The notes under the pieces were generated by a model. The model ran no database searches, was not told the origin of the DNA, and saw only the letters and a program-made list of their open reading frames with translations. Position numbers and translations under genes: made by a program. Below are positions 6,594 to 58,425 of a stretch of DNA of 64,000 nucleotides, one piece after another. The stretch's first letter is position 1; each line of letters starts with the position of its first letter. The stretch comes from Escherichia coli (lineage in GTDB: Bacteria > Pseudomonadota > Gammaproteobacteria > Enterobacterales > Enterobacteriaceae): the NCBI RefSeq assembly GCF_044324875.1, contig NZ_CP172187.1. One strand, given 5' to 3'.

Positions 6594-6862
6594 TATTCTA
6601 ATAACTGAATCCACACACAGTCAAATGTCATTATTGTGACTAAAAAACGCTCAATTCTCTGAGGGTGTGGCTGTATGCCTGCTGTGGACTGCTGTGTCCA
6701 GCTTATCCACAGCATTTTGCGCACGGTTCTGTGAATAAAATACCTGGTTACCCAGGCCGTGCCGGCACGTTAACCGGGCTGCATCCAATGCAAGTGTGTC
6801 GCTGTCGCCGGCATCCTCACCAGGTCACTCAGCAGTCAGGGAGAAAAATGGCGGATGAAGTA

Positions 6863-7221
6863 TGACGGAGACGGTCGGGCAAGTGCCCGTTTCTTTTCCG
6901 ACAAAGGATGTCGCCGTGCTCCTCTTTTTACTGCGCCGGCTGACGCGGCGCGGCATAAACGCTGCCTGTGGTCAGTGTCCCGCGTCCGGCGGGCACGGGA
7001 CGGGCGCTTTTACCGCTCCCGGCTGGCGTCGGTGACAGTGTACGCCAGCCCGTCGCCCTTTTCTGATGAACGCCCTTCAAGCCGCTTTCGCGGCATAGCC
7101 TTGCCGTCAAAAAGACGACGGCTGCGGTATTCCACGGTCGGCCTGACCCGTTACCGGACGCGGTGAACAGCCCACAGGCAGCGGGGAACGGGCACCACAG
7201 GGGGGCCCTCCCGGTGCTCCT
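6863..7221 (+). repeat. leading-region repeat family A, copy 1 (~360 bp, GC-rich, contains long imperfect inverted repeat arms 6954-6989 / 7154-7184)
   Basis: Near-identical to 8168-8526; ends at the RBS of the downstream gene. Confidence 0.85.
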
Positions 7222-7236
7222 GTGAGGAGAATTCCC

Positions 7237-8163
7237 ATGCCAAACTGGTGCTCAAATCGTATGTATTTTTCTGGTGAACCAGCACAGATCGCTGAGATTA
7301 AACGACTGGCCAGCGGTGCAGTCACACCGCTTTATCGCCGCGCCACAGATGAAGGTATTCAGCTGTTTCTGGCCGGTAGTGCCGGACTTCTGCAGACCAC
7401 TGAAGATGTGCGGTTTGAACCATGCCCCGGACTGACGGCTGCCGGACGTGGTGTTGTATCGCCGGAGAATATCGCGTTCACCCGCTGGCTGACACACCTG
7501 CAGAACGGTGTGCTACTGGATGAAAAAAACTGCCTGATGCTGCATGAACTCTGGCTGCAGAGTGGTACTGGCCAGCGTCGCTGGGAAGGATTACCGGATG
7601 AGGTCAGGGAAAGCATCACCGTGCATTTCACCGCCAAAAGAGGTAACTGGTGTGGCTTCTGGAGTAACGAGGATGTATCGGTGTGGTGGAACCGTCTGTG
7701 TGACAATGTACTGCCGGAAAAAACCATGCCGTTTGACCTGCTGACGGTTCTGCCCACCCGCCTGGATGTTGAAGTGAATGGCTTTAACGGTGGTGTTCTG
7801 AACGGTGTTCCTTCTGCGTATCACTGGTATACGGAACAGTATGGCGTGAAGTGGCCTGTGGGGTATGAGGTGAATATCAGCAGTCAGGGAGACAACTTCA
7901 TTCAGGTTGATTTCGACACGCCGTGGTGTCAGCCGGAAAGCGACGTTATTGCAGAATTAAGCCGCCGTTTCAGTTGCACACTGGAGCACTGGTATGCCGA
8001 GCAGGGCTGCAATTTCTGTGGCTGGCAGCGATATGAGCGTGGAGAGCTTGTTGATGTCCTGTGGGGGGAATTGGAATGGTCTTCCCCGACAGATGACGAT
8101 GAGCTGCCGGAAGTCACCGGACCTGCGTGGATTGTCGACAAGGTGGCGCATTACGGTGGATGA
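7237..8163 (+). CDS. hypothetical Cys-rich leading-region protein (family not assigned)
   Basis: 308 aa from ATG preceded by GAGGAG RBS (MPNWCSNRMYF...); multiple Cys/Trp-rich motifs incl. CNFCGW. Confidence 0.7.
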   Translation: MPNWCSNRMYFSGEPAQIAEIKRLASGAVTPLYRRATDEGIQLFLAGSAGLLQTTEDVRFEPCPGLTAAGRGVVSPENIAFTRWLTHLQNGVLLDEKNCLMLHELWLQSGTGQRRWEGLPDEVRESITVHFTAKRGNWCGFWSNEDVSVWWNRLCDNVLPEKTMPFDLLTVLPTRLDVEVNGFNGGVLNGVPSAYHWYTEQYGVKWPVGYEVNISSQGDNFIQVDFDTPWCQPESDVIAELSRRFSCTLEHWYAEQGCNFCGWQRYERGELVDVLWGELEWSSPTDDDELPEVTGPAWIVDKVAHYGG

Positions 8164-8167
8164 ATTC

Positions 8168-8526
8168 TGACGGAGACGGGCGGGCAACCGCCCGTTTCTT
8201 TTCCGACAAAGGATGTCGCCGTGCTCCTCTTTTTACTGCGCCGGCTGACGCGGCGCGGCATAAACGCTGCCTGTGGTCAGTGTCCCGCGTCCGGCGGGCA
8301 CGGGACGGGCGCTTTTACCGCTCCCGGCTGGCACCGGTGACAGTGTACGCCAGCCCGTCGCCCTTTTCTGATGAACGCCCTTCAAGCCGCTTTCGCGGCA
8401 TAGCCTTGCCGTCAAAAAGACGACGGCTGCGGTATTCCACGGTCGGCCTGACCCGTTACCGGACGCGGTGAACAGCCCACAGGCAGCGGGGAACGGGCAC
8501 CACAGGGGTGCCCTCCCGGTGCCTTC
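8168..8526 (+). repeat. leading-region repeat family A, copy 2
   Basis: Near-identical to 6863-7221; ends at RBS of the methyltransferase gene. Confidence 0.85.
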
Positions 8527-8546: not shown

Positions 8547-9230
8547 ATGTCCCGTTTTATCCTGGGTGACTGCGTGCGAGTTATGGCCACGTTTCCGGAC
8601 AATGCTGTCGATTTCATCCTCACCGACCCGCCGTATCTCGTCGGTTTCCGTGACCGTTCCGGGCGCACCATTGCCGGTGACGTTAACGATGACTGGTTGC
8701 AACCTGCCAGCAATGAGATGTACCGCGTACTCAAAAAAGACGCTCTGTTGGTCAGCTTCTACGGCTGGAACCGTATTGACCGCTTTATGGCGGCCTGGAA
8801 ACGCGCCGGATTCAGCGTGGCAGGGCACCTCGTGTTCACCAAAAACTACACATCCAAATCTGCGTATGTCGCGTACCGCCACGAATGCGCCTACATCCTG
8901 GCAAAAGGCCGTCCACGTCTGCCACAAAACCCGCTGCCGGACGTGCTGGGCTGGAAATATTCGGGCAATCGTCATCACCCGACGGAAAAGCCTGTTACCA
9001 GCCTGCAACCGCTGATTGAGAGCTTCACACACCCGAACGCAATTGTGCTGGACCCGTTTGCAGGCAGCGGCTCAACCTGCGTTGCCGCCCTCCAGTCCGG
9101 ACGCCGGTATATCGGTATCGAGCTGCTTGAGCAGTATCACCGTGCCGGACAGCAACGACTGGCTGCCGTTCAACGGGCCATGCAGCAGGGGGCCGCGAAT
9201 GATGACTGGTTTATGCCGGAGGCTGCGTAA
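8547..9230 (+). CDS. orphan N6-adenine DNA methyltransferase (DPPY motif before FAGSGS motif; beta-class order)
   Basis: 227 aa; LTDPPY and DPFAGSGSTC motifs; AGGAGG RBS; no adjacent restriction endonuclease. Confidence 0.8.
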   Translation: MSRFILGDCVRVMATFPDNAVDFILTDPPYLVGFRDRSGRTIAGDVNDDWLQPASNEMYRVLKKDALLVSFYGWNRIDRFMAAWKRAGFSVAGHLVFTKNYTSKSAYVAYRHECAYILAKGRPRLPQNPLPDVLGWKYSGNRHHPTEKPVTSLQPLIESFTHPNAIVLDPFAGSGSTCVAALQSGRRYIGIELLEQYHRAGQQRLAAVQRAMQQGAANDDWFMPEAA

Positions 9231-9452
9231 ATGAACTATGCCGGACACGAAAAACTTCGCGCCGAAGTGGCGGAGGTGGCCAACACCATGTGTGACCTTC
9301 GGGCCAGGCTGAACGATATGGAGCATCGCTGTCGTTTTGATTCCGATGTGCTTGTTGAACGCCTGACACGCCAGACGCTGTATCGCGCCAATCGCCTGTT
9401 TATGGAGGCGTATACCGAAATTCTTGAACTGGATGCGTGCTTCAAAGATTAA
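9231..9452 (+). CDS. hypothetical small protein (73 aa)
   Basis: ATG overlaps upstream stop (TAAATG); within a co-directional gene block. Confidence 0.5.
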   Translation: MNYAGHEKLRAEVAEVANTMCDLRARLNDMEHRCRFDSDVLVERLTRQTLYRANRLFMEAYTEILELDACFKD

Positions 9453-9464
9453 GGGGGAGACGAA

Positions 9465-9899
9465 ATGTACGGAACATGCGAAACACTCTGCCGGGAGCTG
9501 GCAGCGCAGTATCCGGGAGACACGCCGCTGATGCTGGTTGTCTGGTCCCCGGAAGAGATTCAGGCACTGGCTGACGGTATGGAAATTTCTCTGACCGATC
9601 ATGAAATCAGGACCGTCCTGTCGCGCCTGGAGGACATCCCGGAAGACCAGCGGAGTGAATCCGGTATTTCTTCTGCCGCTGCGATGGAGATTATCAGCAA
9701 CGTGAGCGAAAACCGCCAGGTGACCGTCCCTGCTGAACTGCTGGCGTCCCTGATTCAGACCGCCGAACAGGCACTGTGGAAACGTGAATGGGCCGCCCGT
9801 GATAACGGCCTTGCCGTCCCGGAATGTGTTACCCGCCGTCAGGCAGTGATTAATCAGGCCCGCACCCTGCTGAAAAACAACACACACGAAAACAACTGA
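9465..9899 (+). CDS. hypothetical leading-region protein, paralog of the 11376-11798 product
   Basis: 144 aa; GGGGAGA RBS; shares MY..E..RE...VTVPA..L backbone with the 11376 ORF. Confidence 0.65.
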   Translation: MYGTCETLCRELAAQYPGDTPLMLVVWSPEEIQALADGMEISLTDHEIRTVLSRLEDIPEDQRSESGISSAAAMEIISNVSENRQVTVPAELLASLIQTAEQALWKREWAARDNGLAVPECVTRRQAVINQARTLLKNNTHENN

Positions 9900-10013
9900 T
9901 GTTATCGCCGCCTGCCCTCTGCCATTCAGAGACTGACCGGAACCGGGGCGGAACTGGTACTGTCCGGCAGTCAGTGGCAGTCGCTGCCGGTACTTCCGGC
10001 AGACGGAACGCAG

Positions 10014-10487
10014 GTGTCTTTCCCGTATGCCGGAGAATGGCTGACCGAAGACGAAATCAGGGCTGTTCTTGATGCGGTGCACGATGCGGTACGAAGCATC
10101 TGTTACCAGGTGGCAGAAGATACGCGGCGTATCCGTGCGGCGCTGACCACCACCGGTCAGACGTTGCTGACCCGCCAGACGCGCCGCTTTCGCCTGGTCG
10201 TGAAGGAAAGCGATCATCCCTGCTGGCTCGATGAAGATGACGAAAACCTGCCCGTAGTGCTCGATGTCATCGTGAACCGGGGCGCACGTTTTTCGGCAGT
10301 GGAAATGTACCTGGTCAGCGATTGTATTGAGCATATCCTGTCCAGTGGGCTGGCCTGCGATGTGCTGCGTATACCGGATGAACCGCCCCGCCGCTGGTTT
10401 GACCGTGGTGTTCTGCGGGAGGTGGTCCGGGAAGCCCGGACCGAAATCCGCAGCATGGCGGATGCCCTGGCAAAAATCCGTAAATGA
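10014..10487 (+). CDS. hypothetical protein; start uncertain (frame open back to the TGA at 9897-9899)
   Basis: 157 aa from GTG; same frame as the preceding ORF with only one intervening stop. Confidence 0.45.
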
Positions 10488-10638
10488 TGACACTGGCGGG
10501 GTAAATCCCCGCCTTTTTCCTGCCGGTCCCCGGACAGAGCACAAAGGAAGTCGCCGCCGGCTCCGCTTTACCCGGCCATGCGGGGCATGGCCTTGTGGAT
10601 TTTCAGTTATGTGGCCTCAGCGTCGTGTGCGGGCTGTG

Positions 10639-10903: not shown

Positions 10904-11329
10904 ATGCAATATGCGAAACCTGTCACTCTGAATGTTGAAGAGTGCGACCGTCTGTTTTTTCTGCCTTACCTGTTTGGCCAGGATTTTCTGTATGCCGAGG
11001 CATCTGTGTACGCGCTGGCGAAAAAAATGATGCCGGAATATGACGGCGGATTCTGGCACTTCATCCGCCTGCCGGACGGTGGCGGTTACATGATGCCGGA
11101 TGGCGACCGTTTTCATCTGGTCAACGGTGAAAACTGGTTTGACCGTACGGTCAGCGCCGATGCCGCAGGCATCATTGTGACTTCCCTTGTGATTAACCGT
11201 CAGTTGTGGCTGTACCACGACAGCGGTGATGCAGGACTGACTCACCTGTACAGGATGCGCGATGCGCAGTTGTGGAGCCACATCGAATTTCACCCCGAAT
11301 GCAATGCGATTTACGCGGCACTGGACTGA
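10904..11329 (+). CDS. klcA: KlcA/ArdB-family antirestriction-like protein
   Basis: 141 aa; GGAGG RBS; size and sequence character match KlcA/ArdB family from memory; followed by GGCGGCAATGCCGCC hairpin. Confidence 0.6.
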
Positions 11330-11375: not shown

Positions 11376-11798
11376 ATGTACTGTACTGTTAAAGAAATTA
11401 TCCGCGAAGTGCTGGATACAGACGTGCCGGACAGTGAATGCGTTTTTGCCGTGGTGCTGACCCGTGGGGATGTGCGCCACATAGCTCAGGACTGGAGTCT
11501 GGCAGACGATGAGCTGGAAACCGTCATGCAGCGGCTGGACGATGCCTTTGAGCATGGTGCGGATGTCAGCGTTGTTCACGACGTTGTTCGTGAACTGATG
11601 GAAGAAAAGCGCGCCAGCCGTCATGTGACAGTCCCGGCGATGATGCTGGAAAAAGTGATGGCGCTGGCAGGCAGTGAAATGAAGCGCCTGTATGCCGTCG
11701 GAAGTGAGAACGGGGGCGACGGTGACGCATTCGTCAGGGAGGAACGCGAAGCAATGGACGTTGTGTTACAGGCGCTGGACGGGGAGACGATGTCATGA
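11376..11798 (+). CDS. hypothetical leading-region protein, paralog of the 9465-9899 product
   Basis: 140 aa; AAGGAGA RBS; paralogy visible by eye. Confidence 0.65.
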   Translation: MYCTVKEIIREVLDTDVPDSECVFAVVLTRGDVRHIAQDWSLADDELETVMQRLDDAFEHGADVSVVHDVVRELMEEKRASRHVTVPAMMLEKVMALAGSEMKRLYAVGSENGGDGDAFVREEREAMDVVLQALDGETMS

Positions 11799-12788: not shown

Positions 12789-13027
12789 GGGTGATGTTCT
12801 TTAAAAATCAGGATTTATTTCAGGCTCCGGCAATACGCATTTATGTGTTCTGTCAGTCATCCGGCTGGCAGGTAATGAGAACGCAGGAACAGAAGGAGGA
12901 AAACACCGGAGAACGTCAGACGCAGATATGAAAAAAGCAGGCCGGGGAGGACCTGCTTAATCCACACCGCAAAAACTGTTCGAGCAGTTTCTGCGGTTCC
13001 ATTCAACAGTCATAAGGAGTTTCATTT

Positions 13028-13258
13028 ATGACGGTAAGTATTGTTTCACCTTCCGCAGCGGCTGTAAAGCCCCGCCGTCATCCCCGTTTCAGACGCGAAG
13101 ACATCCCCGCGCCGGAAATTGACCCCGTGCTGAAAGCCTTCGGGCGACACATAGCCCGGAGTTTTCACCGGGGGCGTGGTGTACACATCCCCGCCATGAA
13201 AAACACGGCCTTCGGGCAGGTGCTCCGCACACTCGAACTGAAACGCGCTTTTAACTGA
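13028..13258 (+). CDS. hypothetical basic small protein (76 aa)
   Basis: AAGGAG RBS; first ORF after repeat B1. Confidence 0.45.
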   Translation: MTVSIVSPSAAAVKPRRHPRFRREDIPAPEIDPVLKAFGRHIARSFHRGRGVHIPAMKNTAFGQVLRTLELKRAFN

Positions 13259-16187: not shown

Positions 16188-19100
16188 ATGGCAGTTCGTG
16201 GCATTAACAAGGTCATTCTTGTCGGTGTGCGCCGTTGAAGCGCGGTGTTTTATGGAGTGTTGCCTGAAAAGCAACATGGCTTAGTGGTATAGCCATTGCA
16301 TACTGTGGTTAGCCTTGCTTGGTAACAGGCTCGGAGATCCTGAAAAGGAGAGGTGAACATAGCATCCACAGAAAAGGGTGGTGAATATGGAAATCGTTAT
16401 AAGTATCACCATTCAATGCAAGATGTATATGGATAAACTGGGTTTGTTGAAGTCGAGATCTATGTGGGAAACAGGAAACCAATAACGCAGAACGATTGAA
16501 GCGTTATTCCCGTACTAGCACAAGAAATCCGTCCGACGTTGATTGTGACCACTCTAACGGGCCAGCTATTGATGAAATAGTTAAACGATCGAAAGACATC
16601 CTAAGTACATCGCATCTCCACACCGTGAAACTACGGGACTACCTAAACTGGATTTATACCCAGCATGGTAGCGGAGTCTCCATAGTACTCAAGGTCGGCC
16701 TGTAATGGGTTCCGGCAGTCCGCATTATACGGAAGCAGCAAAGGTATAAATCAACCGGAAGGAAGATGAAAGCCTCACAGTGCTGCGGGGAAGGGAGACA
16801 GTTGTTAGATACATCAATCTCTAAGAGGAGGGTTAGCCAATGCTGCCTGATGAACTTGAGAAAAGATTAGATGGAATTGAGGATGCTTCAAAAAAAGGGT
16901 ATCCAGTACGTAATCTATACAAAATTGCGTGTGAGCCCGGACTGTGGCTGCAAGCCTACGTGAATATACGGGCCAATGCAGGTGCACTGACTCAAGGTGT
17001 ATCAACAGATACCATTGATGGCTTTTCTATCGAAAGAGCAGAGAAGCTGGCAAAAACATTGCGGAGTAGAGAATACGTAGCGAAACCTGTACGCAGAGTT
17101 CAGATCCCAAAAAAGGACGGAAAAACCAGACCGCTGGGGATTCCAGGTGGAGACGATAAACTGGCGCAAGAAGTAGCAAGAATTATTCTGGAAAGGGTTT
17201 ATGAACCAGTATTCTCTGAACACTCTCATGGATTCAGACCAAAACGTTCGTGTGAAACTGCGCTCAGATCTATTCGTCCAGTCTGGAACGGAGTTAAATG
17301 GATCGTGGATGTTGATATCAAAGGTTTCTTTGACAATATCCCCCACAAACTATTGCTGAATACACTGGCAGAGAAAATTAAGGATAAGAATTTCCTGAAA
17401 TTAATCGAACAGTGGCTGAAGGCAGGATATGTGGACAATTGGAAATACCATCGCTCATATTCTGGCACGCCACAAGGTGGGATAATTTCTCCCTTACTGG
17501 CAAATATATACCTCGACAAACTGGACCGTTTTGTAGAACAGAATTTAATTCCTGCATATACAAGCGGTACAAAACGAAGAGCGAATCCAGATATGAACAG
17601 GCTGGCCCATAAGATTCATAAACTACGAAAGAAAGTAGACGGTATGGCAACTGATTCTGAATCAGAAAAAGAAGCCATAAAGAAAGAAATTGAACGACTG
17701 CTTGAAGAAAAACGTTCTATACCATCTCAGGTCATGAACGATCCAAACTTCAGGCGTATGTACTATGTTCGATATGCTGATGACTTCGTAATCGGTGTCA
17801 TCGGCTCGAAGAAAGATGCTGAACATATATCAAGACAGGTCAGAAACTTTATTACTACTTCACTGGGATTGGAAGTTAATGAAGCAAAGACCAGGATCCG
17901 CCATATCTCAGAAGGAGTTAATTTTTTAGGCTATGAAATCAGACAGGCAGATGCAAAGAAATTGCTGAAGCAGAAAATGCAAGGGCGGCACGCTCTCCGG
18001 AGATCCACCACAGGAATTGTGCAGCTCTTCGTTCCTGACAATATAGCCGCTAAATTTTGTCACCAAAAGAAATATGGCTGTTATGAGAATGTGAAGGCTG
18101 TACATCGTTCAAGTCTACAAAATCTCAGTGAAGCTGAAATTGTTCTGACTTTCAACGCGGAAATGCGCGGATTGGCGAACTACTACAGTCTGGCGCTGGA
18201 CATGAAATATAAATTATCAAAATTATATTTCATATGGCAAATAAGCCTTTTTAAGACCCTGGCGAATAAACGACGTAGTTCAGTGAATAAAGTCGCCAAA
18301 TCGCTACGGCAAAATAATGGAGATCTGGCTATTACCGTTCAGGCCAAAAATGGATCCCGAAAGATTGAGGTTTTCAAACTCAAACATGTCAATCGCAACC
18401 GAACAACGATTGTCGATACGGAACCGAGAACCGCACATATCACAACCCGCACAACAGAGATCATGCGTCGATTAGGGGCAAGGATCTGCGAGTATTGTGC
18501 GAAGACTGGGCGCTGCGAAGTACATCATGTCAGAAAGCTAAAAGACCTGAAGAAAGGTCGTAAGGCCGGATATAAACCCAGCTTGTGGCAACTAATGATG
18601 ATCGCACGCCGCCGGAAAACGATGATTTTGTGCGCAAGTTGCCACGACAAGTTACATAGCGGAAAACTACCCGATTTGAGACAGGAAAAGGGAAGAATAC
18701 TCCTGCAACCACCTGTCTCAAGCGGGGATTCTGCTAAATGAGTTTATCCCCAATAAGCTAGCAATGGAGAGCCGTATGCACTGAAAGGTGCACGTACGGT
18801 TCGGAGGGGGGGTAACGGTGATCTAACTCAAGATAAGCAGGACATATTCGCCATTTATCTTGAAAGACCACACGTACCCTACCCTACCGTCTGGGAAAAG
18901 ATCCGGAAGTCCGTTACATCCCAAACGGGGGCGCAGTGGCAAACCTGCAGGTGGCCACGTCAGAAAGCTGGCGCGACAAACAGACGGGGGAGATACGGGA
19001 GCAGACAGAATGGCATCGCGTGGTGCTGTTCGGCAAGCTCGCGGAAGTGGCTGGTGAGTATCTGCGCAAGGGCGCGCAGGTCTACATCGAAGGTCAGCTT

Positions 19101-48493: not shown

Positions 48494-51312
48494 ATGAAGT
48501 TTATGTGATTGCCGGTGGTGAGTGGTTGCGGAATAACCTGAATGCCATTGCCGCCTTTATGGGAACCAGAACGTGGGATTCCATTGAAAAAATTGCGCTC
48601 ACATTGTCTGTTCTCGCGGTGGCCGTAATGTGGGTACAGCGGCACAACGTGATGGATTTGCTGGGCTGGGTGGCCGTGTTTGTGCTTATCAGCCTGCTGG
48701 TTAATGTCCGTACATCGGTGCAGATTATTGATAACAGTGACCTGGTCAAAGTTCACCGGGTGGATAATGTGCCGGTCGGACTGGCGATGCCACTTTCACT
48801 GACGACCCGTATCGGGCATGCAATGGTGGCCAGTTACGAGATGATCTTCACGCAACCGGACAGTGTCACCTACAGCAAAACGGGGATGCTGTTTGGCGCA
48901 GAACTGGTATCAAAAAGCACCGACTTTTTGTCCCGTAATCCGGAAATCGCCAATCTTTTCCAGGATTATGTGCAGAACTGCGTGATGGGGGATATTTACC
49001 TGAACCACAAATATACGCTGGAGGAGCTGATGGCCTCCGCTGATCCCTACACGCTGATTTTTTCCCGCCCCAGCCCGCTGCGGGGCGTTTATGACAGCAA
49101 TAATAATTTCGTAACCTGTAAGGACGCTTCGGTTTCGCTGAAAGACAAGCTGAATCTGGACACACAGAGTGGCGGAAAAACCTGGCATTATTATGCCCAG
49201 CAGCTATTTGGCGGACGCCCTGATCCTAACCTGCTGTTCAGTACGCTGATTGGCGACAGTTACAGTTACTTCTATGGCTCAAGTAAATCAGCCAGCCAGA
49301 TCATCCGCCAGAATGTCACCATCAATGCGCTGAAGGAGGGGATCACCAGTTATGCCGCACGTAATGGTGATTCGGCCAGCCTGGTGAATCTGGCCACCAC
49401 GTCATCGATGGAGAAACAACGTCTGGCACATGTATCAATCGGTCATGTGGCGATGCGGACACTGCCCATGACGCAGACCATCCTGACGGGGATCGCCATC
49501 GGTATTTTCCCGCTCCTGGTACTGGCGGCTGTATTCAACAAACTGACGCTGTCCGTCCTGAAAGGCTATGTGTTTGCCCTGATGTGGTTGCAGTCATGGC
49601 CAATGTTGTACGCCATTCTGAACAGCGCCATGACATTTTATGCAAAGCAGAATGGTGCACCGGTGGTGCTCTCGGAAATTTCACAGATACAGCTGAAATA
49701 CTCCGATCTGGCTTCCACTGCCGGGTATCTTTCCATGATGATCCCGCCATTATCCTGGATGATGGTCAGGGGGCTCGGGGCAGGATTTTCCAGTGTGTAC
49801 AGCCATTTCGCTTCCTCTGCTATCAGCCCGACCGCCAGTGCAGCAGGCAGTGTGGTTGACGGTAATTACTCCTACGGCAACATGCAGACGGAGAACGTGA
49901 ACGGCTTCAGCTGGAGCACCAACAGCACCACGTCGTTTGGTCAGATGATGTACCAGACCGGCAGTGGCGCAACTGCCACACAGACCCGTGACGGTAATAT
50001 GGTGATGGATGCAAGCGGAGCGATGTCCCGGTTACCGGTCGGCATCAATGCAACGCGTCAGATTGCGGCGGCACAACAGGAAATGGCCCGGGAAGCATCG
50101 AACAGAGCAGAAAGTGCCCTGCATGGGTTCAGCAGCAGTATTGCCAGTGCCTGGAACACGCTCAGTCAGTTTGGTTCTAACCGGGGGAGCAGTGATTCTG
50201 TCACCGGTGGCGCTGACAGTACGATGAGCGCACAGGACTCCATGATGGCCAGCCGTATGCGCAGTGCAGTGGAAAGCTATGCGAAGGCGCATAATATCAG
50301 TAATGAGCAGGCGACTCAGGAACTGGCATCCAGAAGTACGAGAGCTTCTGCCGGGATGTATGGAGATGCTCATGCTGAATGGGGGGTTAAACCTAAAATT
50401 CTTGGTGTTGGTGGAGGATTAGGTGTTAAAGGTGGTGGTCGCGCTGGTATTGATTGGGAAGATAATGATGCGCATACGGCAAGTAGTAATACTCAGTCGA
50501 GCCATAATGCTCGTCATGATATCGATGCCAGAGCTACACAAGACTTTAAAGAGGCCAGCGATTACTTTACCAGTCGCAAGGTCAGTGAGTCCGGCAGCCA
50601 TACTGACAATAATGCTGATTCCCGTGTGGATCAGTTGTCTGCAGCCCTGAACTCAGCAAAACAGAGTTACGACCAGTTCACGACGAATATGACCCGCAGC
50701 CATGAATATGCTGAAATGGCATCCCGTACTGAAAGCATGAGTGGGCAGATGAGTGAAGACCTGTCGCAACAGTTTGCACAGTATGTGATGAAACACGCGC
50801 CGCAGGATGCCGAAGCTATTCTGACAAACACCAGTTCACCGGAGATTGCAGAACGCCGTCGGGCTATGGCGTGGTCTTTTGTTCAGGAACAGGTGCAGCC
50901 TGGTGTTGATAATGCCTGGCGTGAATCCCGTGGGGACATCGGTAAAGGAATGGAGAGCGTACCTTCGGGTGGTGGCAGCCAGGATATTATTGCTGATCAT
51001 CAGGGGCATCAGGCCATTATTGAGCAAAGAACGCAGGACAGTAATATCCGTAATGATGTAAAACATCAGGTTGATAATATGGTCACAGAATACCGAGGCA
51101 ATATCGGAGATACTCAGAGCAGCATACGTGGCGAAGAAAATATTGTAGGAAGACAGTATTCTGAACTACAAAATCACCATAAAACAGAGGCATTATCTCA
51201 GAATAATAAATATAATGAAGAAAAATCGGGTCAGGAAAGAATGCCCGGGGCTGACAGTCCACAGGAACTGATGAAAAGAGCAAAGGAGTATCAGGATAAG
51301 CACAAGCAATAA
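48490..51312 (+). CDS. traG: TraG (mating-pair stabilisation / entry exclusion determinant)
   Basis: 940 aa MNEVYVIAGGEWLRNNLNAIAAFMGT... Confidence 0.9.
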   Translation: MNEVYVIAGGEWLRNNLNAIAAFMGTRTWDSIEKIALTLSVLAVAVMWVQRHNVMDLLGWVAVFVLISLLVNVRTSVQIIDNSDLVKVHRVDNVPVGLAMPLSLTTRIGHAMVASYEMIFTQPDSVTYSKTGMLFGAELVSKSTDFLSRNPEIANLFQDYVQNCVMGDIYLNHKYTLEELMASADPYTLIFSRPSPLRGVYDSNNNFVTCKDASVSLKDKLNLDTQSGGKTWHYYAQQLFGGRPDPNLLFSTLIGDSYSYFYGSSKSASQIIRQNVTINALKEGITSYAARNGDSASLVNLATTSSMEKQRLAHVSIGHVAMRTLPMTQTILTGIAIGIFPLLVLAAVFNKLTLSVLKGYVFALMWLQSWPMLYAILNSAMTFYAKQNGAPVVLSEISQIQLKYSDLASTAGYLSMMIPPLSWMMVRGLGAGFSSVYSHFASSAISPTASAAGSVVDGNYSYGNMQTENVNGFSWSTNSTTSFGQMMYQTGSGATATQTRDGNMVMDASGAMSRLPVGINATRQIAAAQQEMAREASNRAESALHGFSSSIASAWNTLSQFGSNRGSSDSVTGGADSTMSAQDSMMASRMRSAVESYAKAHNISNEQATQELASRSTRASAGMYGDAHAEWGVKPKILGVGGGLGVKGGGRAGIDWEDNDAHTASSNTQSSHNARHDIDARATQDFKEASDYFTSRKVSESGSHTDNNADSRVDQLSAALNSAKQSYDQFTTNMTRSHEYAEMASRTESMSGQMSEDLSQQFAQYVMKHAPQDAEAILTNTSSPEIAERRRAMAWSFVQEQVQPGVDNAWRESRGDIGKGMESVPSGGGSQDIIADHQGHQAIIEQRTQDSNIRNDVKHQVDNMVTEYRGNIGDTQSSIRGEENIVGRQYSELQNHHKTEALSQNNKYNEEKSGQERMPGADSPQELMKRAKEYQDKHKQ

Positions 51313-54351: not shown

Positions 54352-55887
54352 TCAGTGGTAGTAGCCCGGACCACGCAGGTTTTCATGCTCTGAAGCATAT
54401 GCCGGATGTTGTTCGCCCTGGCGGGATAATGGAAGCTCCAGGTTCTCCCGATGGTGACGCAGCAGATTGTCGATAAAGCGTCTGTCAGGGGCGTTATAGT
54501 GCAGGGCAACGTAACAGGCCTTTTCCAGCCGTTCCGGGCCGTATTTTTTCTGAAGTGCCAGCAGCCCCAGAACTGCACGATAAGCCAGTTCCGGATGGGG
54601 TTTTGCCTTCAGCATGGATTCAACCACCCGGCCTGTGGACGGGCCCGTACGTTTTCCCTGCTCGATCAGGCGTTCCGGTGTCCATGTCCCGTGCTGCCGG
54701 TGGCGCTCTGGCATGTGAAGCGGATTGGTTGTGTGTTTATATTCATGTGTGCTGCGCGGATGTTGCGCCACACACTGCCCCTTGTGCCAGAGCTGTACCA
54801 CCGACTGCCCCGCCTTCAGTGACAGACGCTGACCGACCAGTTCGTGTGGAACGGAGTACCAGTGACGGGCATATTCAACGTGGTAGTCAGGGCCAACCTT
54901 CACAGCTTTGTATTCCGTGTATTCATAAGGTGCCAGAGGCAGCGGAGAGAGTGCTGGCGCATCCAGTATGCGGAAGCGTTCTGCACGGGTTTGATTGCCG
55001 TACCCCTTCATTGGCCGGTTATTCATGTCTGTCAGTAACTCCCTAAGGCGCGCATTCAGCGCCCTGAGCGTGTGGAAGGTTTCATTACGGATGCGGGCAA
55101 GAAGCCATCGTTCAACGATGAGGACGCCGTTTTCTGCTTTTGGTTTATCTTTAGGTTTGCGTGGTCGGGCCGGGATGATAACCGTGCCATAGTGCTCAGC
55201 CAGTGCCTGATAACTGTCGTTGATGACAGGCTCATATCGATCGGCCTTTTTCACTGCGCTTCTGAGGTTATCGGGGATGAGCAGCTTCGGTACGCCGCCC
55301 AGGAAGGTCAGGCAACGGCTGTGGGCATTTAACCATGACATCATGTCCTGACCTTCGCACGCTTCAACGTAGGTATAGTTGGACGCCCCCATTACGGCCA
55401 CGAAGATTGCCACGCGGCGTATCTCACCGGTGTCCGGATTAATAACAGGAACCGTAGGACCACAGAAGTCGATAAAAAGCTTTTCGCCGGCACGATGCTC
55501 CTGGCGCATGGAGAGACGTCGCGTTTTTTTCCACTCCCGGTAGCAACGGCAGAAGTGCGAGTATCCCATCGCTTTGTTACCCGCCTGTGCCTTGTATTCC
55601 ATCCACAACAGTTGCCGCGTCACACCTGGTTTTCTCATTTCCGTATCGAAGTACAACATGTCAGGCATTACAAGCTCTGATGCAAAGGTGTCTTTGGGCG
55701 GAAAAATGAGTTTCTCCAGCGTGTCATGGGATATATCAGCAGGTAATGGCCATGACAGAGAAGAGGCTTTGAAGCGGGCAAGAACCTCAAAAACGGTTGA
55801 GGCGCTGATGTGTAACGTCAGTCCGATACAACGGTTAGTCAGCTTCTTGTCGAACTTGAGCTGAAGGATCTTAAAACAGGTTTCCAT
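54352..55887 (-). CDS. istA: IstA transposase (DDE)
   Basis: 511 aa from METCFKILQLKF...; AGGAG RBS. Confidence 0.85.
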   Translation of the reverse strand: METCFKILQLKFDKKLTNRCIGLTLHISASTVFEVLARFKASSLSWPLPADISHDTLEKLIFPPKDTFASELVMPDMLYFDTEMRKPGVTRQLLWMEYKAQAGNKAMGYSHFCRCYREWKKTRRLSMRQEHRAGEKLFIDFCGPTVPVINPDTGEIRRVAIFVAVMGASNYTYVEACEGQDMMSWLNAHSRCLTFLGGVPKLLIPDNLRSAVKKADRYEPVINDSYQALAEHYGTVIIPARPRKPKDKPKAENGVLIVERWLLARIRNETFHTLRALNARLRELLTDMNNRPMKGYGNQTRAERFRILDAPALSPLPLAPYEYTEYKAVKVGPDYHVEYARHWYSVPHELVGQRLSLKAGQSVVQLWHKGQCVAQHPRSTHEYKHTTNPLHMPERHRQHGTWTPERLIEQGKRTGPSTGRVVESMLKAKPHPELAYRAVLGLLALQKKYGPERLEKACYVALHYNAPDRRFIDNLLRHHRENLELPLSRQGEQHPAYASEHENLRGPGYYH

Positions 55888-56226
55888 AGTGCTCCTGGAT
55901 TTTCTCTTTCTGGACATTGACGTCTCCACTGGTTTAAACACGGCAATGGAGACTGTGGTGAAAAGAGTTAATTCCCGGAGTGACTGGCAGGATGCCAATC
56001 AATGATCGGAAGCATGCCAAATCGTGATCGATTGTGATGCCAAACTGTGATCGGAGATGGATGCCAAATCATGATCGATTCGAATGCCAAACTGCGATCG
56101 ATTCAGATGCCATTTTGCAGCAGGCGGGTATCACCACCGGCATACAGGGTACACCTGGTCTGTTTCTGTGAATTAACCCCACATCATCCTTTTCTGCCCT
56201 GTTCCAGATTTTCCCGGAGTTTCATC

Positions 56227-58425
56227 ATGAGTTTTAACGCAAAGGATATGACCCAGGGCGGTCAGATTGCGTCCATGCGTATCCGCATGTTCAGCCAGAT
56301 CGCCAATATCATGCTTTACTGCCTGTTTATTTTTTTCTGGATACTCGTTGGTCTGGTTTTATGGGTAAAAATAAGCTGGCAGACGTTTGTGAACGGCTGT
56401 ATTTACTGGTGGTGTACCACGCTGGAAGGCATGCGGGATTTAATCAAGTCCCAGCCAGTATATGAGATTCAGTATTACGGCAAAACCTTCCGGATGAACG
56501 CTGCCCAGGTACTGCATGATAAATATATGATCTGGTGCGGTGAGCAGCTATGGTCCGCATTCGTTCTGGCGTCTGTCGTGGCCCTGGTTATTTGCCTGAT
56601 CACCTTCTTTGTTGTCTCCTGGATTCTGGGGCGTCAGGGTAAACAACAGAGCGAAAATGAAGTCACAGGTGGTCGTCAGCTGACAGACAATCCGAAAGAC
56701 GTTGCCCGGATGCTGAAAAAAGACGGCAAGGACTCCGATATCCGGATTGGCGACCTGCCGATTATCCGGGATTCCGAAATCCAGAACTTCTGTCTGCACG
56801 GCACGGTCGGGGCCGGTAAGTCGGAGGTTATCCGTCGTCTGGCCAACTACGCCCGTCAGCGCGGTGATATGGTGGTGATTTATGACCGTTCAGGGGAATT
56901 TGTTAAAAGTTACTATGATCCCTCCATCGATAAAATCCTGAATCCGCTGGATGCCCGCTGTGCCGCATGGGATTTGTGGAAGGAGTGCCTGACACAGCCG
57001 GATTTTGATAATACCGCAAATACTCTGATCCCTATGGGTACAAAAGAGGACCCGTTCTGGCAGGGTTCAGGACGTACCATTTTTGCGGAAGCGGCGTACC
57101 TGATGCGTAATGACCCCAACCGCAGCTACAGCAAACTGGTGGACACACTGCTTTCCATCAAAATTGAAAAACTGCGTACCTTCCTGCGTAATTCACCGGC
57201 AGCCAACCTGGTGGAAGAGAAAATTGAGAAAACGGCGATTTCCATCCGTGCTGTGCTGACCAACTACGTGAAAGCCATCCGTTACCTGCAGGGGATTGAG
57301 CATAACGGTGAGTCTTTTACCATCCGTGACTGGATGCGTGGTGTCCGGGAAGATCAGAAAAACGGCTGGCTGTTTATCTCGTCGAATGCCGACACCCATG
57401 CCTCCCTGAAGCCGGTGATCTCCATGTGGCTGTCCATTGCCATTCGTGGTCTGCTGGCAATGGGAGAAAACCGTAACCGTCGTGTGTGGTTTTTCTGTGA
57501 CGAGTTACCCACGTTACACAAACTGCCGGACCTGGTGGAGATCCTGCCGGAAGCCCGTAAGTTCGGAGGCTGTTATGTGTTTGGTATCCAGTCCTATGCC
57601 CAGCTGGAAGATATCTACGGTGAGAAAGCGGCGGCCACGCTGTTTGACGTCATGAACACCCGTGCTTTTTTCCGTTCCCCGAGCCATAAGATTGCAGAGT
57701 TCGCTGCCGGTGAGATTGGTGAGAAAGAGCACCTGAAAGCCAGCGAGCAGTATTCCTACGGTGCTGACCCGGTACGTGACGGGGTATCGACCGGTAAGGA
57801 TATGGAGCGTCAGACACTGGTCAGTTATTCCGACATTCAGTCTCTGCCGGATCTGACCTGCTATGTCACTCTGCCCGGACCGTATCCGGCAGTAAAACTC
57901 TCCCTGAAATATCAGGCACGACCGAAGGTCGCTCCGGAGTTTATTCCGCGTGACATCAACCCGGAAATGGAGAACCGTCTGAGTGCCGTACTTGCTGCAA
58001 GGGAAGCAGAAGGTCGCCAGATGGCCAGCCTCTTCGAACCGGAGGTTGCCTCCGGAGAAGGCGTGACTCAGGCTGAACAGCCACAACAGCCACAACAGCC
58101 ACAACAGCCACAACAGCCACAACAGCCACAACAGCCACAACAGCCAGTGTCTTCTGTCATGAATGATAAGAAGTCAGATGCAGGTGTGAGTGTTCCGGCA
58201 GGGGGGATCGAGCAGGAGCTGAAAATGAAACCGGAAGAAGAGATGGAACAGCAACTGCCACCCGGGATCAGTGAATCCGGTGAAGTGGTGGATATGGCCG
58301 CTTATGAGGCATGGCAACAGGAAAATCATCCGGACATCCAGCAGCAGATGCAGCGTCGTGAAGAGGTGAACATTAATGTGCACCGGGAGCGCGGGGAGGA
58401 TGTTGAGCCGGGAGATGATTTCTGA
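56227..58425 (+). CDS. traD: TraD coupling protein (T4CP)
   Basis: 732 aa from [13 protein letters not shown]...; Walker A GTVGAGKS; C-terminal QPQ repeats. Confidence 0.9.
58078..58146 (+). repeat. in-frame 9-bp tandem repeat (CAGCCACAA)x~7.7 encoding (QPQ)n in TraD C-terminus
   Basis: Read directly. Confidence 0.9.

Follow-up and report, generated by a model that had tools for sequence, protein, structure and literature searches.

A stretch of 64,000 nucleotides from an Escherichia coli plasmid (contig NZ_CP172187.1, assembly GCF_044324875.1; referred to here as the window) contains two open reading frames (ORFs) that lie in the same frame and are separated by a single stop codon. Are these one gene of about 341 codons with a nonsense codon, a readthrough arrangement, or a coincidence, the three readings offered by the original prediction? 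The frame scan confirms the arrangement itself. ATG 9465 is the start of a 144-codon ORF which ends at TGA 9897-9899. No in-frame stop follows over 38 codons, through 10013, GTG 10014 is the first ATG, GTG or TTG in this frame after the TGA, and the frame closes at TGA 10485-10487. Positions 9465-10487 comprise 341 codons including the one internal stop. Comparison with homologous plasmids makes it highly probable that the window carries a rare deletion allele, consisting of an intact yubF and a truncated yubG pseudogene, and not a readthrough gene. We take yubF and yubG to be the names of these genes in the leading region of the F plasmid, in keeping with the labels 'YubE family protein' and 'YubG family protein' of the Prokaryotic Genome Annotation Pipeline (PGAP); in RefSeq the pair is named 'DUF1380 family protein' and 'YubG family protein' or 'hypothetical protein'.

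Alignment to an IncK2/Z plasmid (L001) shows the window to lack 232 bp, in a clean gap between 9915 and 9916. L001 has an intact allele: its yubF stops at the same TGA, a spacer of 50 nt follows, and a separate ORF of 256 amino acids (aa) starts from its own ATG in a different frame. Intact alleles, including that of F, have a spacer of 45-51 nt with a strong hairpin, the ribosome-binding site GGGAGA and the ATG of a yubG gene of 256-258 aa. In the homologues GGGAGA lies 7-8 nt before ATGAACGAA and defines a conserved independent start of yubG. With the 232 bp the window has lost yubG codons 1-67 together with their ATG and ribosome-binding site, as well as the 3' arm of the hairpin. A single gene carrying a nonsense codon was not borne out: the homologues show two genes with yubF ending at the same TGA, and alignment of this position, where a sense codon would have been expected, revealed TGA in every aligned intact allele. 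Two separate genes with a conserved start of the second, named beforehand as the pattern that would speak against one gene, is what the homologues display.

According to this reading, a 232-bp deletion between short imperfect direct repeats hit the spacer of two neighbouring leading-region genes. It left yubF intact and stopping at its normal TGA, while the 189 leftover yubG codons fell into the yubF frame by chance. The remnant, devoid of its own start, would remain untranslated apart from trace readthrough and presumably gives no functional product. The features of the locus are as follows.

8547-9230, plus strand: DNA methylase gene, first of the cluster (NCBIfam NF010253 DNA methyltransferase, E 2e-147; 'DNA methylase' in homologous plasmids)
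9231-9452, plus strand: yubE-like gene, 73 aa ('YubE family protein' in L005; PF27407 YubE on homologous contigs)
9465-9899, plus strand: yubF-like gene, intact, DUF1380, 144 aa (Pfam PF07128, E 2.2e-52), with its native TGA stop
9897-9899, plus strand: yubF stop TGA in TGATG context, at the same position in every aligned intact allele
9900-9915, plus strand: kept 5' part of the yubF-yubG spacer, defined by the alignments, with the 5' arm of the hairpin at 9903-9915 (TATCGCCGCCTGC)
9916-9918, no strand: deletion junction with CCT microhomology, 232 bp missing relative to L001:2217-2448
9918-10487, plus strand: yubG remnant, a pseudogene of codons 68-256 plus stop, aligned to the 256-aa gene of L001
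10014-10016, plus strand: start assigned by the ORF finder at a GTG that encodes Val100 of YubG in the alignment to L001
10495-10520, plus strand: hairpin and T-run resembling an intrinsic terminator (GGCGGGGTAAATCCCCGCC, then TTTTTCC), 8 nt past the yubG stop

The deletion is flanked by the imperfect direct repeats GCCGC-CTGCCCT and GCCGCTCCTGGCCT, with CCT common to both at the junction, and the loop of the spacer hairpin contains its left breakpoint. Slippage between short repeats, perhaps assisted by the hairpin, is the mechanism that these features suggest. The intact spacer runs from TGATG through the hairpin to CAGGGAGA, followed by 7-8 nt up to the yubG start. Its hairpin has a 13-bp stem (TATCGCCGCCTGC / CCT / GCGGGCGGCGATA; -27.6 kcal/mol, z -4.1). 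The window version has no notable fold (z -1.0 versus shuffles), because the ancestral hairpin has lost its 3' arm.

The 38 open codons consist of five spacer codons, one junction codon and YubG codons 68-99; 32 of them thus derive from the coding sequence of yubG, which is why no stop interrupts the stretch from the TGA to GTG 10014. Coincidence, one of the readings first offered, accounts for the common frame but does not account for the open codons. An open run of 38 codons would not by itself attract notice in DNA as GC-rich as this window, where 20% of stop-to-stop intervals are at least as long, and 30% of dinucleotide shuffles of 9900-10013 are without an in-frame stop. The full open stretch after the TGA measures 195 codons. 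This length is reached by only 1.1% of the window intervals, a rarity which marks the stretch as a genuine coding frame.

The shared frame is not a conserved property of the gene pair. Among intact alleles, F and L018 have yubG at offset 0 relative to yubF, L001 has it at +1, and L005 and L017 at +2, since hairpin loop and spacer vary by a few bases. As all three offsets occur, the common frame in the window is incidental, a one-in-three outcome of the deletion. Neighbouring genes lie in the same frame by chance in one case of three; yubE (9231-9452) and yubF (from 9465) likewise share a frame, with TAA and four codons between them. The same-frame pattern also exists without any deletion, as F (L025, NC_002483.1 6086-7342) has complete yubF and yubG genes in one frame, with no more than TGA and 15 open codons in between.

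Several features of the intact spacer deserve mention. The hairpin (L001:2197-2262; 6500-6580 in L025 of the F plasmid) is conserved and strong, occurs in loop-length variants and has no T-run. In L001, a mini-ORF of 17 codons begins at the ATG overlapping the yubF stop (TGATG) and terminates in ATGA on the yubG start. Alleles of the L005 type have this ATG in the yubG frame, the probable reason for the many gene calls of 271-276 aa. The arrangement of TGATG, ATG and hairpin may reflect translational coupling or regulation. Coupling via TGATG to the remnant of the window was considered and rejected: ATG 9899 opens a 57-codon ORF in the +1 frame and cannot bring ribosomes to the remnant, which lies in another frame.

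The first gene is complete. Its product matches Pfam PF07128 (DUF1380) over the full profile, residues 1-136 on profile positions 1-137 of 137, and scores 177 bits where the cutoff is 26. The intact homologues L001, L005, L017 and L018 encode yubF of 144 aa with the identical stop position, and TGA is found there in all eight other deletion carriers examined as well. Shine-Dalgarno pairing at the yubF start amounts to -11.2 kcal/mol. RefSeq flags the DUF1380 gene as 'frameshifted' in deletion carriers (L004, L011-L015; equivalent of window 9382-9899), despite the full-length match to Pfam here. This label is likely an artefact of the 184-aa F reference protein WP_001358893.1, as the annotated upstream start of that protein lies in a frame which is open only in F. 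DUF1380 is mentioned only incidentally in the literature. A second, divergent DUF1380 paralogue is located at 11376-11798 (Pfam E 2.7e-4, under the gathering score), directly 3' of an ArdB/KlcA-type antirestriction gene (10904-11329), and DUF1380 genes are thus present twice in the leading region.

The second ORF belongs to the YubG family by C-terminal homology, residues 68-256 being 94-97% identical to the closest 256-aa proteins. It is not a complete protein of about 255-275 aa with the conserved methionine, the N-terminal helix and the W22-P23 motif. 'YubG family' is a PGAP name: Pfam and NCBIfam searches with the second ORF gave no family match. At identities reaching down to 24%, the full-length relatives of YubG measure 254-275 aa and stand alone; they align from residue 2-8 onwards and begin at the same methionine, and W22-P23 is invariant among them and lies in the deleted part. 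Distant yubG genes are situated in similar leading-region contexts, with or without a DUF1380 gene upstream. An AlphaFold model of YubG (pLDDT 90.7, pTM 0.84) predicts one compact fold, in which residues 1-67 hold the first helix, two strands and the second helix. A literature search on yubG function yielded nothing. YubG is a confidently folding protein of unknown function without a close solved structural relative, and its gene sits in the plasmid segment that is first to reach a recipient.

How rare is the deletion allele? The region itself is very common, with Megablast matches in 5,051 complete-genome records of E. coli and, in PLSDB, at least 5,000 plasmids; nearly all of these matches break into two pieces around approximately 230 extra bases. 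The deleted 232-bp segment, searched in the E. coli records, is present in 4,383 of 20,395. The 46-nt deletion junction, searched in the same records and in PLSDB, was detected in seven of the 20,395 and in eight PLSDB plasmids, which together represent nine distinct plasmids. All nine are from E. coli and are predicted to be conjugative by MOB-suite; their sources are chicken, pig and human from China, USA, UK and Brazil. The eight other carriers are identical to the window in yubF and junction. Across these carriers and the window, three haplotypes can be told apart in the 3' part of the remnant, with breakpoints near 9968 and 10215. Identical yubF and junction combined with three 3' haplotypes make a single deletion event, followed by recombination with yubG alleles of other plasmids, the probable origin on sequence grounds.

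The remnant is already annotated as a pseudogene in RefSeq, where the identical allele appears as 'incomplete; missing N-terminus' in six records (equivalent of window 9912-10487). RefSeq alleles such as CQP61_RS02210 (pTB-nb3, NZ_CP033634.1) and HP431_RS25290 (pCP55-141k) have the same junction and differ from the window by 0-1 nucleotides over 9465-10487, which is no difference of substance. The matter is mostly one of annotation hygiene: an ORF list shows two ORFs for one gene and one pseudogene, and the GTG 10014 'start' should not be annotated. The persistence of nine predicted-conjugative plasmids without intact yubG on several continents suggests that the gene is dispensable under at least some conditions.

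Some observations weigh against an intact yubF followed by a dead yubG. Of the stop codons, UGA is known as the one that leaks most in E. coli. Natural single-ORF fusions of yubF and yubG exist, and a fusion product is not obviously harmful. Moreover, no extra stop or frameshift is found in the remnant in any of the three haplotypes. This absence of further decay is explained by the youth of the remnant and by recombination with intact alleles; this explanation is no proof, however, that the remnant is dead.

Could the allele be more than a neutral accident? We consider it very unlikely that the allele is anything but neutral decay. Low-level UGA readthrough could yield a YubF-YubG' fusion reminiscent of the natural fusions described below, which would mark two proteins of unknown function as partners; alternatively, the deletion could have been favoured through loss of a protospacer for clustered regularly interspaced short palindromic repeats (CRISPR). 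With respect to the latter, an E. coli chromosome (NZ_OZ547223.1 1970555-1970586; L024:701-732) carries the 32-nt spacer GGAAGAGACGGATGTTGACCAGCGAAATCCGA in a type I-F CRISPR array by clpA, with the repeat GTTCACTGCCGTACAGGCAGCTTAGAAA. The spacer matches L001:2318-2349 at 32 of 32 positions, in yubG codons ~23-34; the protospacer is preceded by the I-F protospacer-adjacent motif CC and belongs to the 232 bp that the window has lost. Loss of this protospacer may have given the deletion an advantage, and the match fits the published CRISPR targeting of plasmid leading regions (PMC3737333). Only one genome was seen with a spacer matching yubG. Neither the fusion nor the CRISPR-escape explanation has positive support beyond coincidences.

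A further alternative is internal initiation, in which the 157-aa ORF from GTG 10014 would produce a partly active C-terminal fragment of YubG. The frame is indeed open from GTG to the native stop, the native terminator follows, and none of the nine copies has acquired another disabling mutation. But GTG 10014 is the internal Val100 codon in all homologues. The weakness of this start, noted from the outset, has its explanation in the loss of the real one: Shine-Dalgarno pairing is at background level (-3.5 kcal/mol, with 37% of random window sites pairing at least equally well) as compared to -8.2 kcal/mol at the real yubG start. A fragment without residues 1-99 would be deprived of three helices and three to four strands of the compact modelled fold. 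In addition, variation in the remnant occurs in blocks common with intact alleles, which points to recombination and not to selection on a fragment. We regard this explanation as very unlikely.

Functional readthrough, by which some ribosomes would pass UGA 9897-9899 and make a 340-aa YubF-YubG' fusion with a role of its own, is highly unlikely. Its appeal lies in the common frame with a single UGA between the parts, in F and L018, where likewise only one in-frame TGA separates two complete genes, and in the uninterrupted fusions found in nature. These came to light in a search with the conceptual fusion, which detected true single-ORF proteins of 375, 418, 293 and 278 aa (P0001-P0018; loci L006:3001-4128, L010:348-1475 and L019:1130-2257). 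The 375-aa fusion (P0005-P0015) resulted from a 129-nt deletion between the imperfect 15-nt direct repeats GCCCGCACCCTGCTG and GCCCGYAACCTGCTG, which joined ...NQAR to NLLLAQ..., and resembles the window in being a small rearrangement in the same spacer region between short imperfect repeats. In the 418-aa fusion (P0001-P0004), F-type alleles of offset 0 have their TGA changed to a Cys or Arg codon; the 293- and 278-aa fusions are other deletions. The 375-aa junction occurs in five E. coli complete-genome records, which represent one family of ~112-kb plasmids, and a second fusion junction type in no complete-genome record. In the 375- and 418-aa fusions, the yubF stop has been deleted or mutated and nearly all of YubG is kept, whereas the window keeps the TGA and has lost 67 YubG codons. 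The fusions are not derived from the window allele; they arose by other mutations. They show that small rearrangements readily occur in the yubF-yubG spacer, a minor hot spot of deletions between short repeats, and that a fusion protein is tolerated. As a Rosetta-stone case for a partnership of YubF and YubG the fusions were set aside, weakened by the distant YubG genes that occur without a DUF1380 neighbour.

What decides against readthrough is the comparison of alleles. The frame relation is unconserved, with offsets of 0, +1 and +2 among intact alleles, and the independent start of yubG is conserved; in intact L001, as read from its sequence, a further stop ends the yubF frame ~30 codons past the TGA. 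The base after the stop is U, and UGA-U is said, after work by Poole et al. in 1995, to be a strong termination context in E. coli. The hairpin beside the stop is destroyed in the window, and 26% of the YubG fold, the invariant W22-P23 among it, would be missing from a fusion. Rarity is a further point, with nine plasmids carrying the allele against more than 4,300 intact ones. An in-frame UGA with a long open frame behind it is reminiscent of programmed UGA readthrough or selenocysteine recoding. Such systems differ from the window, which has no recoding hairpin and whose homologues stop at the same TGA and restart independently. No stimulatory structure or selenocysteine insertion sequence (SECIS) is present 3' of the UGA (z -1.0), and no recoding RNA family reaches the Rfam gathering threshold in the window. 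A selenocysteine reading of the TGA was likewise discarded, as there is no Rfam match and the hairpin is truncated. A recoding device is not supported because the conserved frame it requires is absent and a conserved independent start is present instead.

A sequencing or assembly artefact, favoured by nothing specific except GC-rich hairpins in the flanks that are troublesome for some sequencing chemistries, is negligible in view of the identical 46-nt junction in nine independently sequenced complete plasmids.

The deletion allele is part of an F-like conjugative plasmid; the locus lies in the leading region and is transcribed toward oriT. This placement derives from Rfam matches to the traJ 5' UTR with FinP, sok and antisense RNAs to traG and traI, the latter two located farther right than traJ 5' UTR/FinP. 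Leading-region membership is borne out by these RNAs on the tra side, by the antirestriction gene and by homologous loci which continue into ssb, DUF905 and psiB. Further Rfam matches are a group II intron domain inside the leading region and the AS-pc01 antisense RNA.

10904-11329: ArdB-type Antirestrict domain (Pfam)
22997-23173: sok (Rfam)
27181-27290: traJ 5' UTR with FinP (Rfam)
18767-18887, 12932-13033, 49209-49294 and 61274-61350: group II intron domain, AS-pc01 antisense RNA and the antisense RNAs to traG and traI (Rfam)

The F plasmid has the same gene order as the window, namely methylase, yubE, DUF1380, yubG, ArdB-type antirestriction and second DUF1380, and the same TGATG stop; DNA identity of the window to related plasmids is ~90-97%. 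In F, yubF (NC_002483.1 54965-55519) and yubG (55565-56341) are annotated as two separate genes. A full spacer with hairpin, GGGAGA and ATG, followed by a complete yubG of 256-258 aa, is present in F and in over 4,300 other records, whereas the window is missing the 232 bp.

On the minus strand, an ORF of 490 aa (9072-10544) runs antisense to the 3' end of the methylase gene, yubE, yubF and the yubG remnant. It was rejected as a gene: the intact allele has ORFs of 154 and 223 aa in its place, and this split identifies the long ORF as a shadow ORF lengthened by the deletion. No sigma-70 promoter was found on the plus strand between 6500 and 12500. The minus strand, which is the transferred strand, folds somewhat better than shuffles as single-stranded DNA (z -2.4). 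Two direct repeats of 300 nt (6850-7149 and 8155-8454), 97% identical, flank a DUF1281 gene (7222-8163), the second repeat being positioned just upstream of the methylase-yubE-yubF-yubG cluster. These repeats are candidate single-strand promoters of the Frpo/ssi type.
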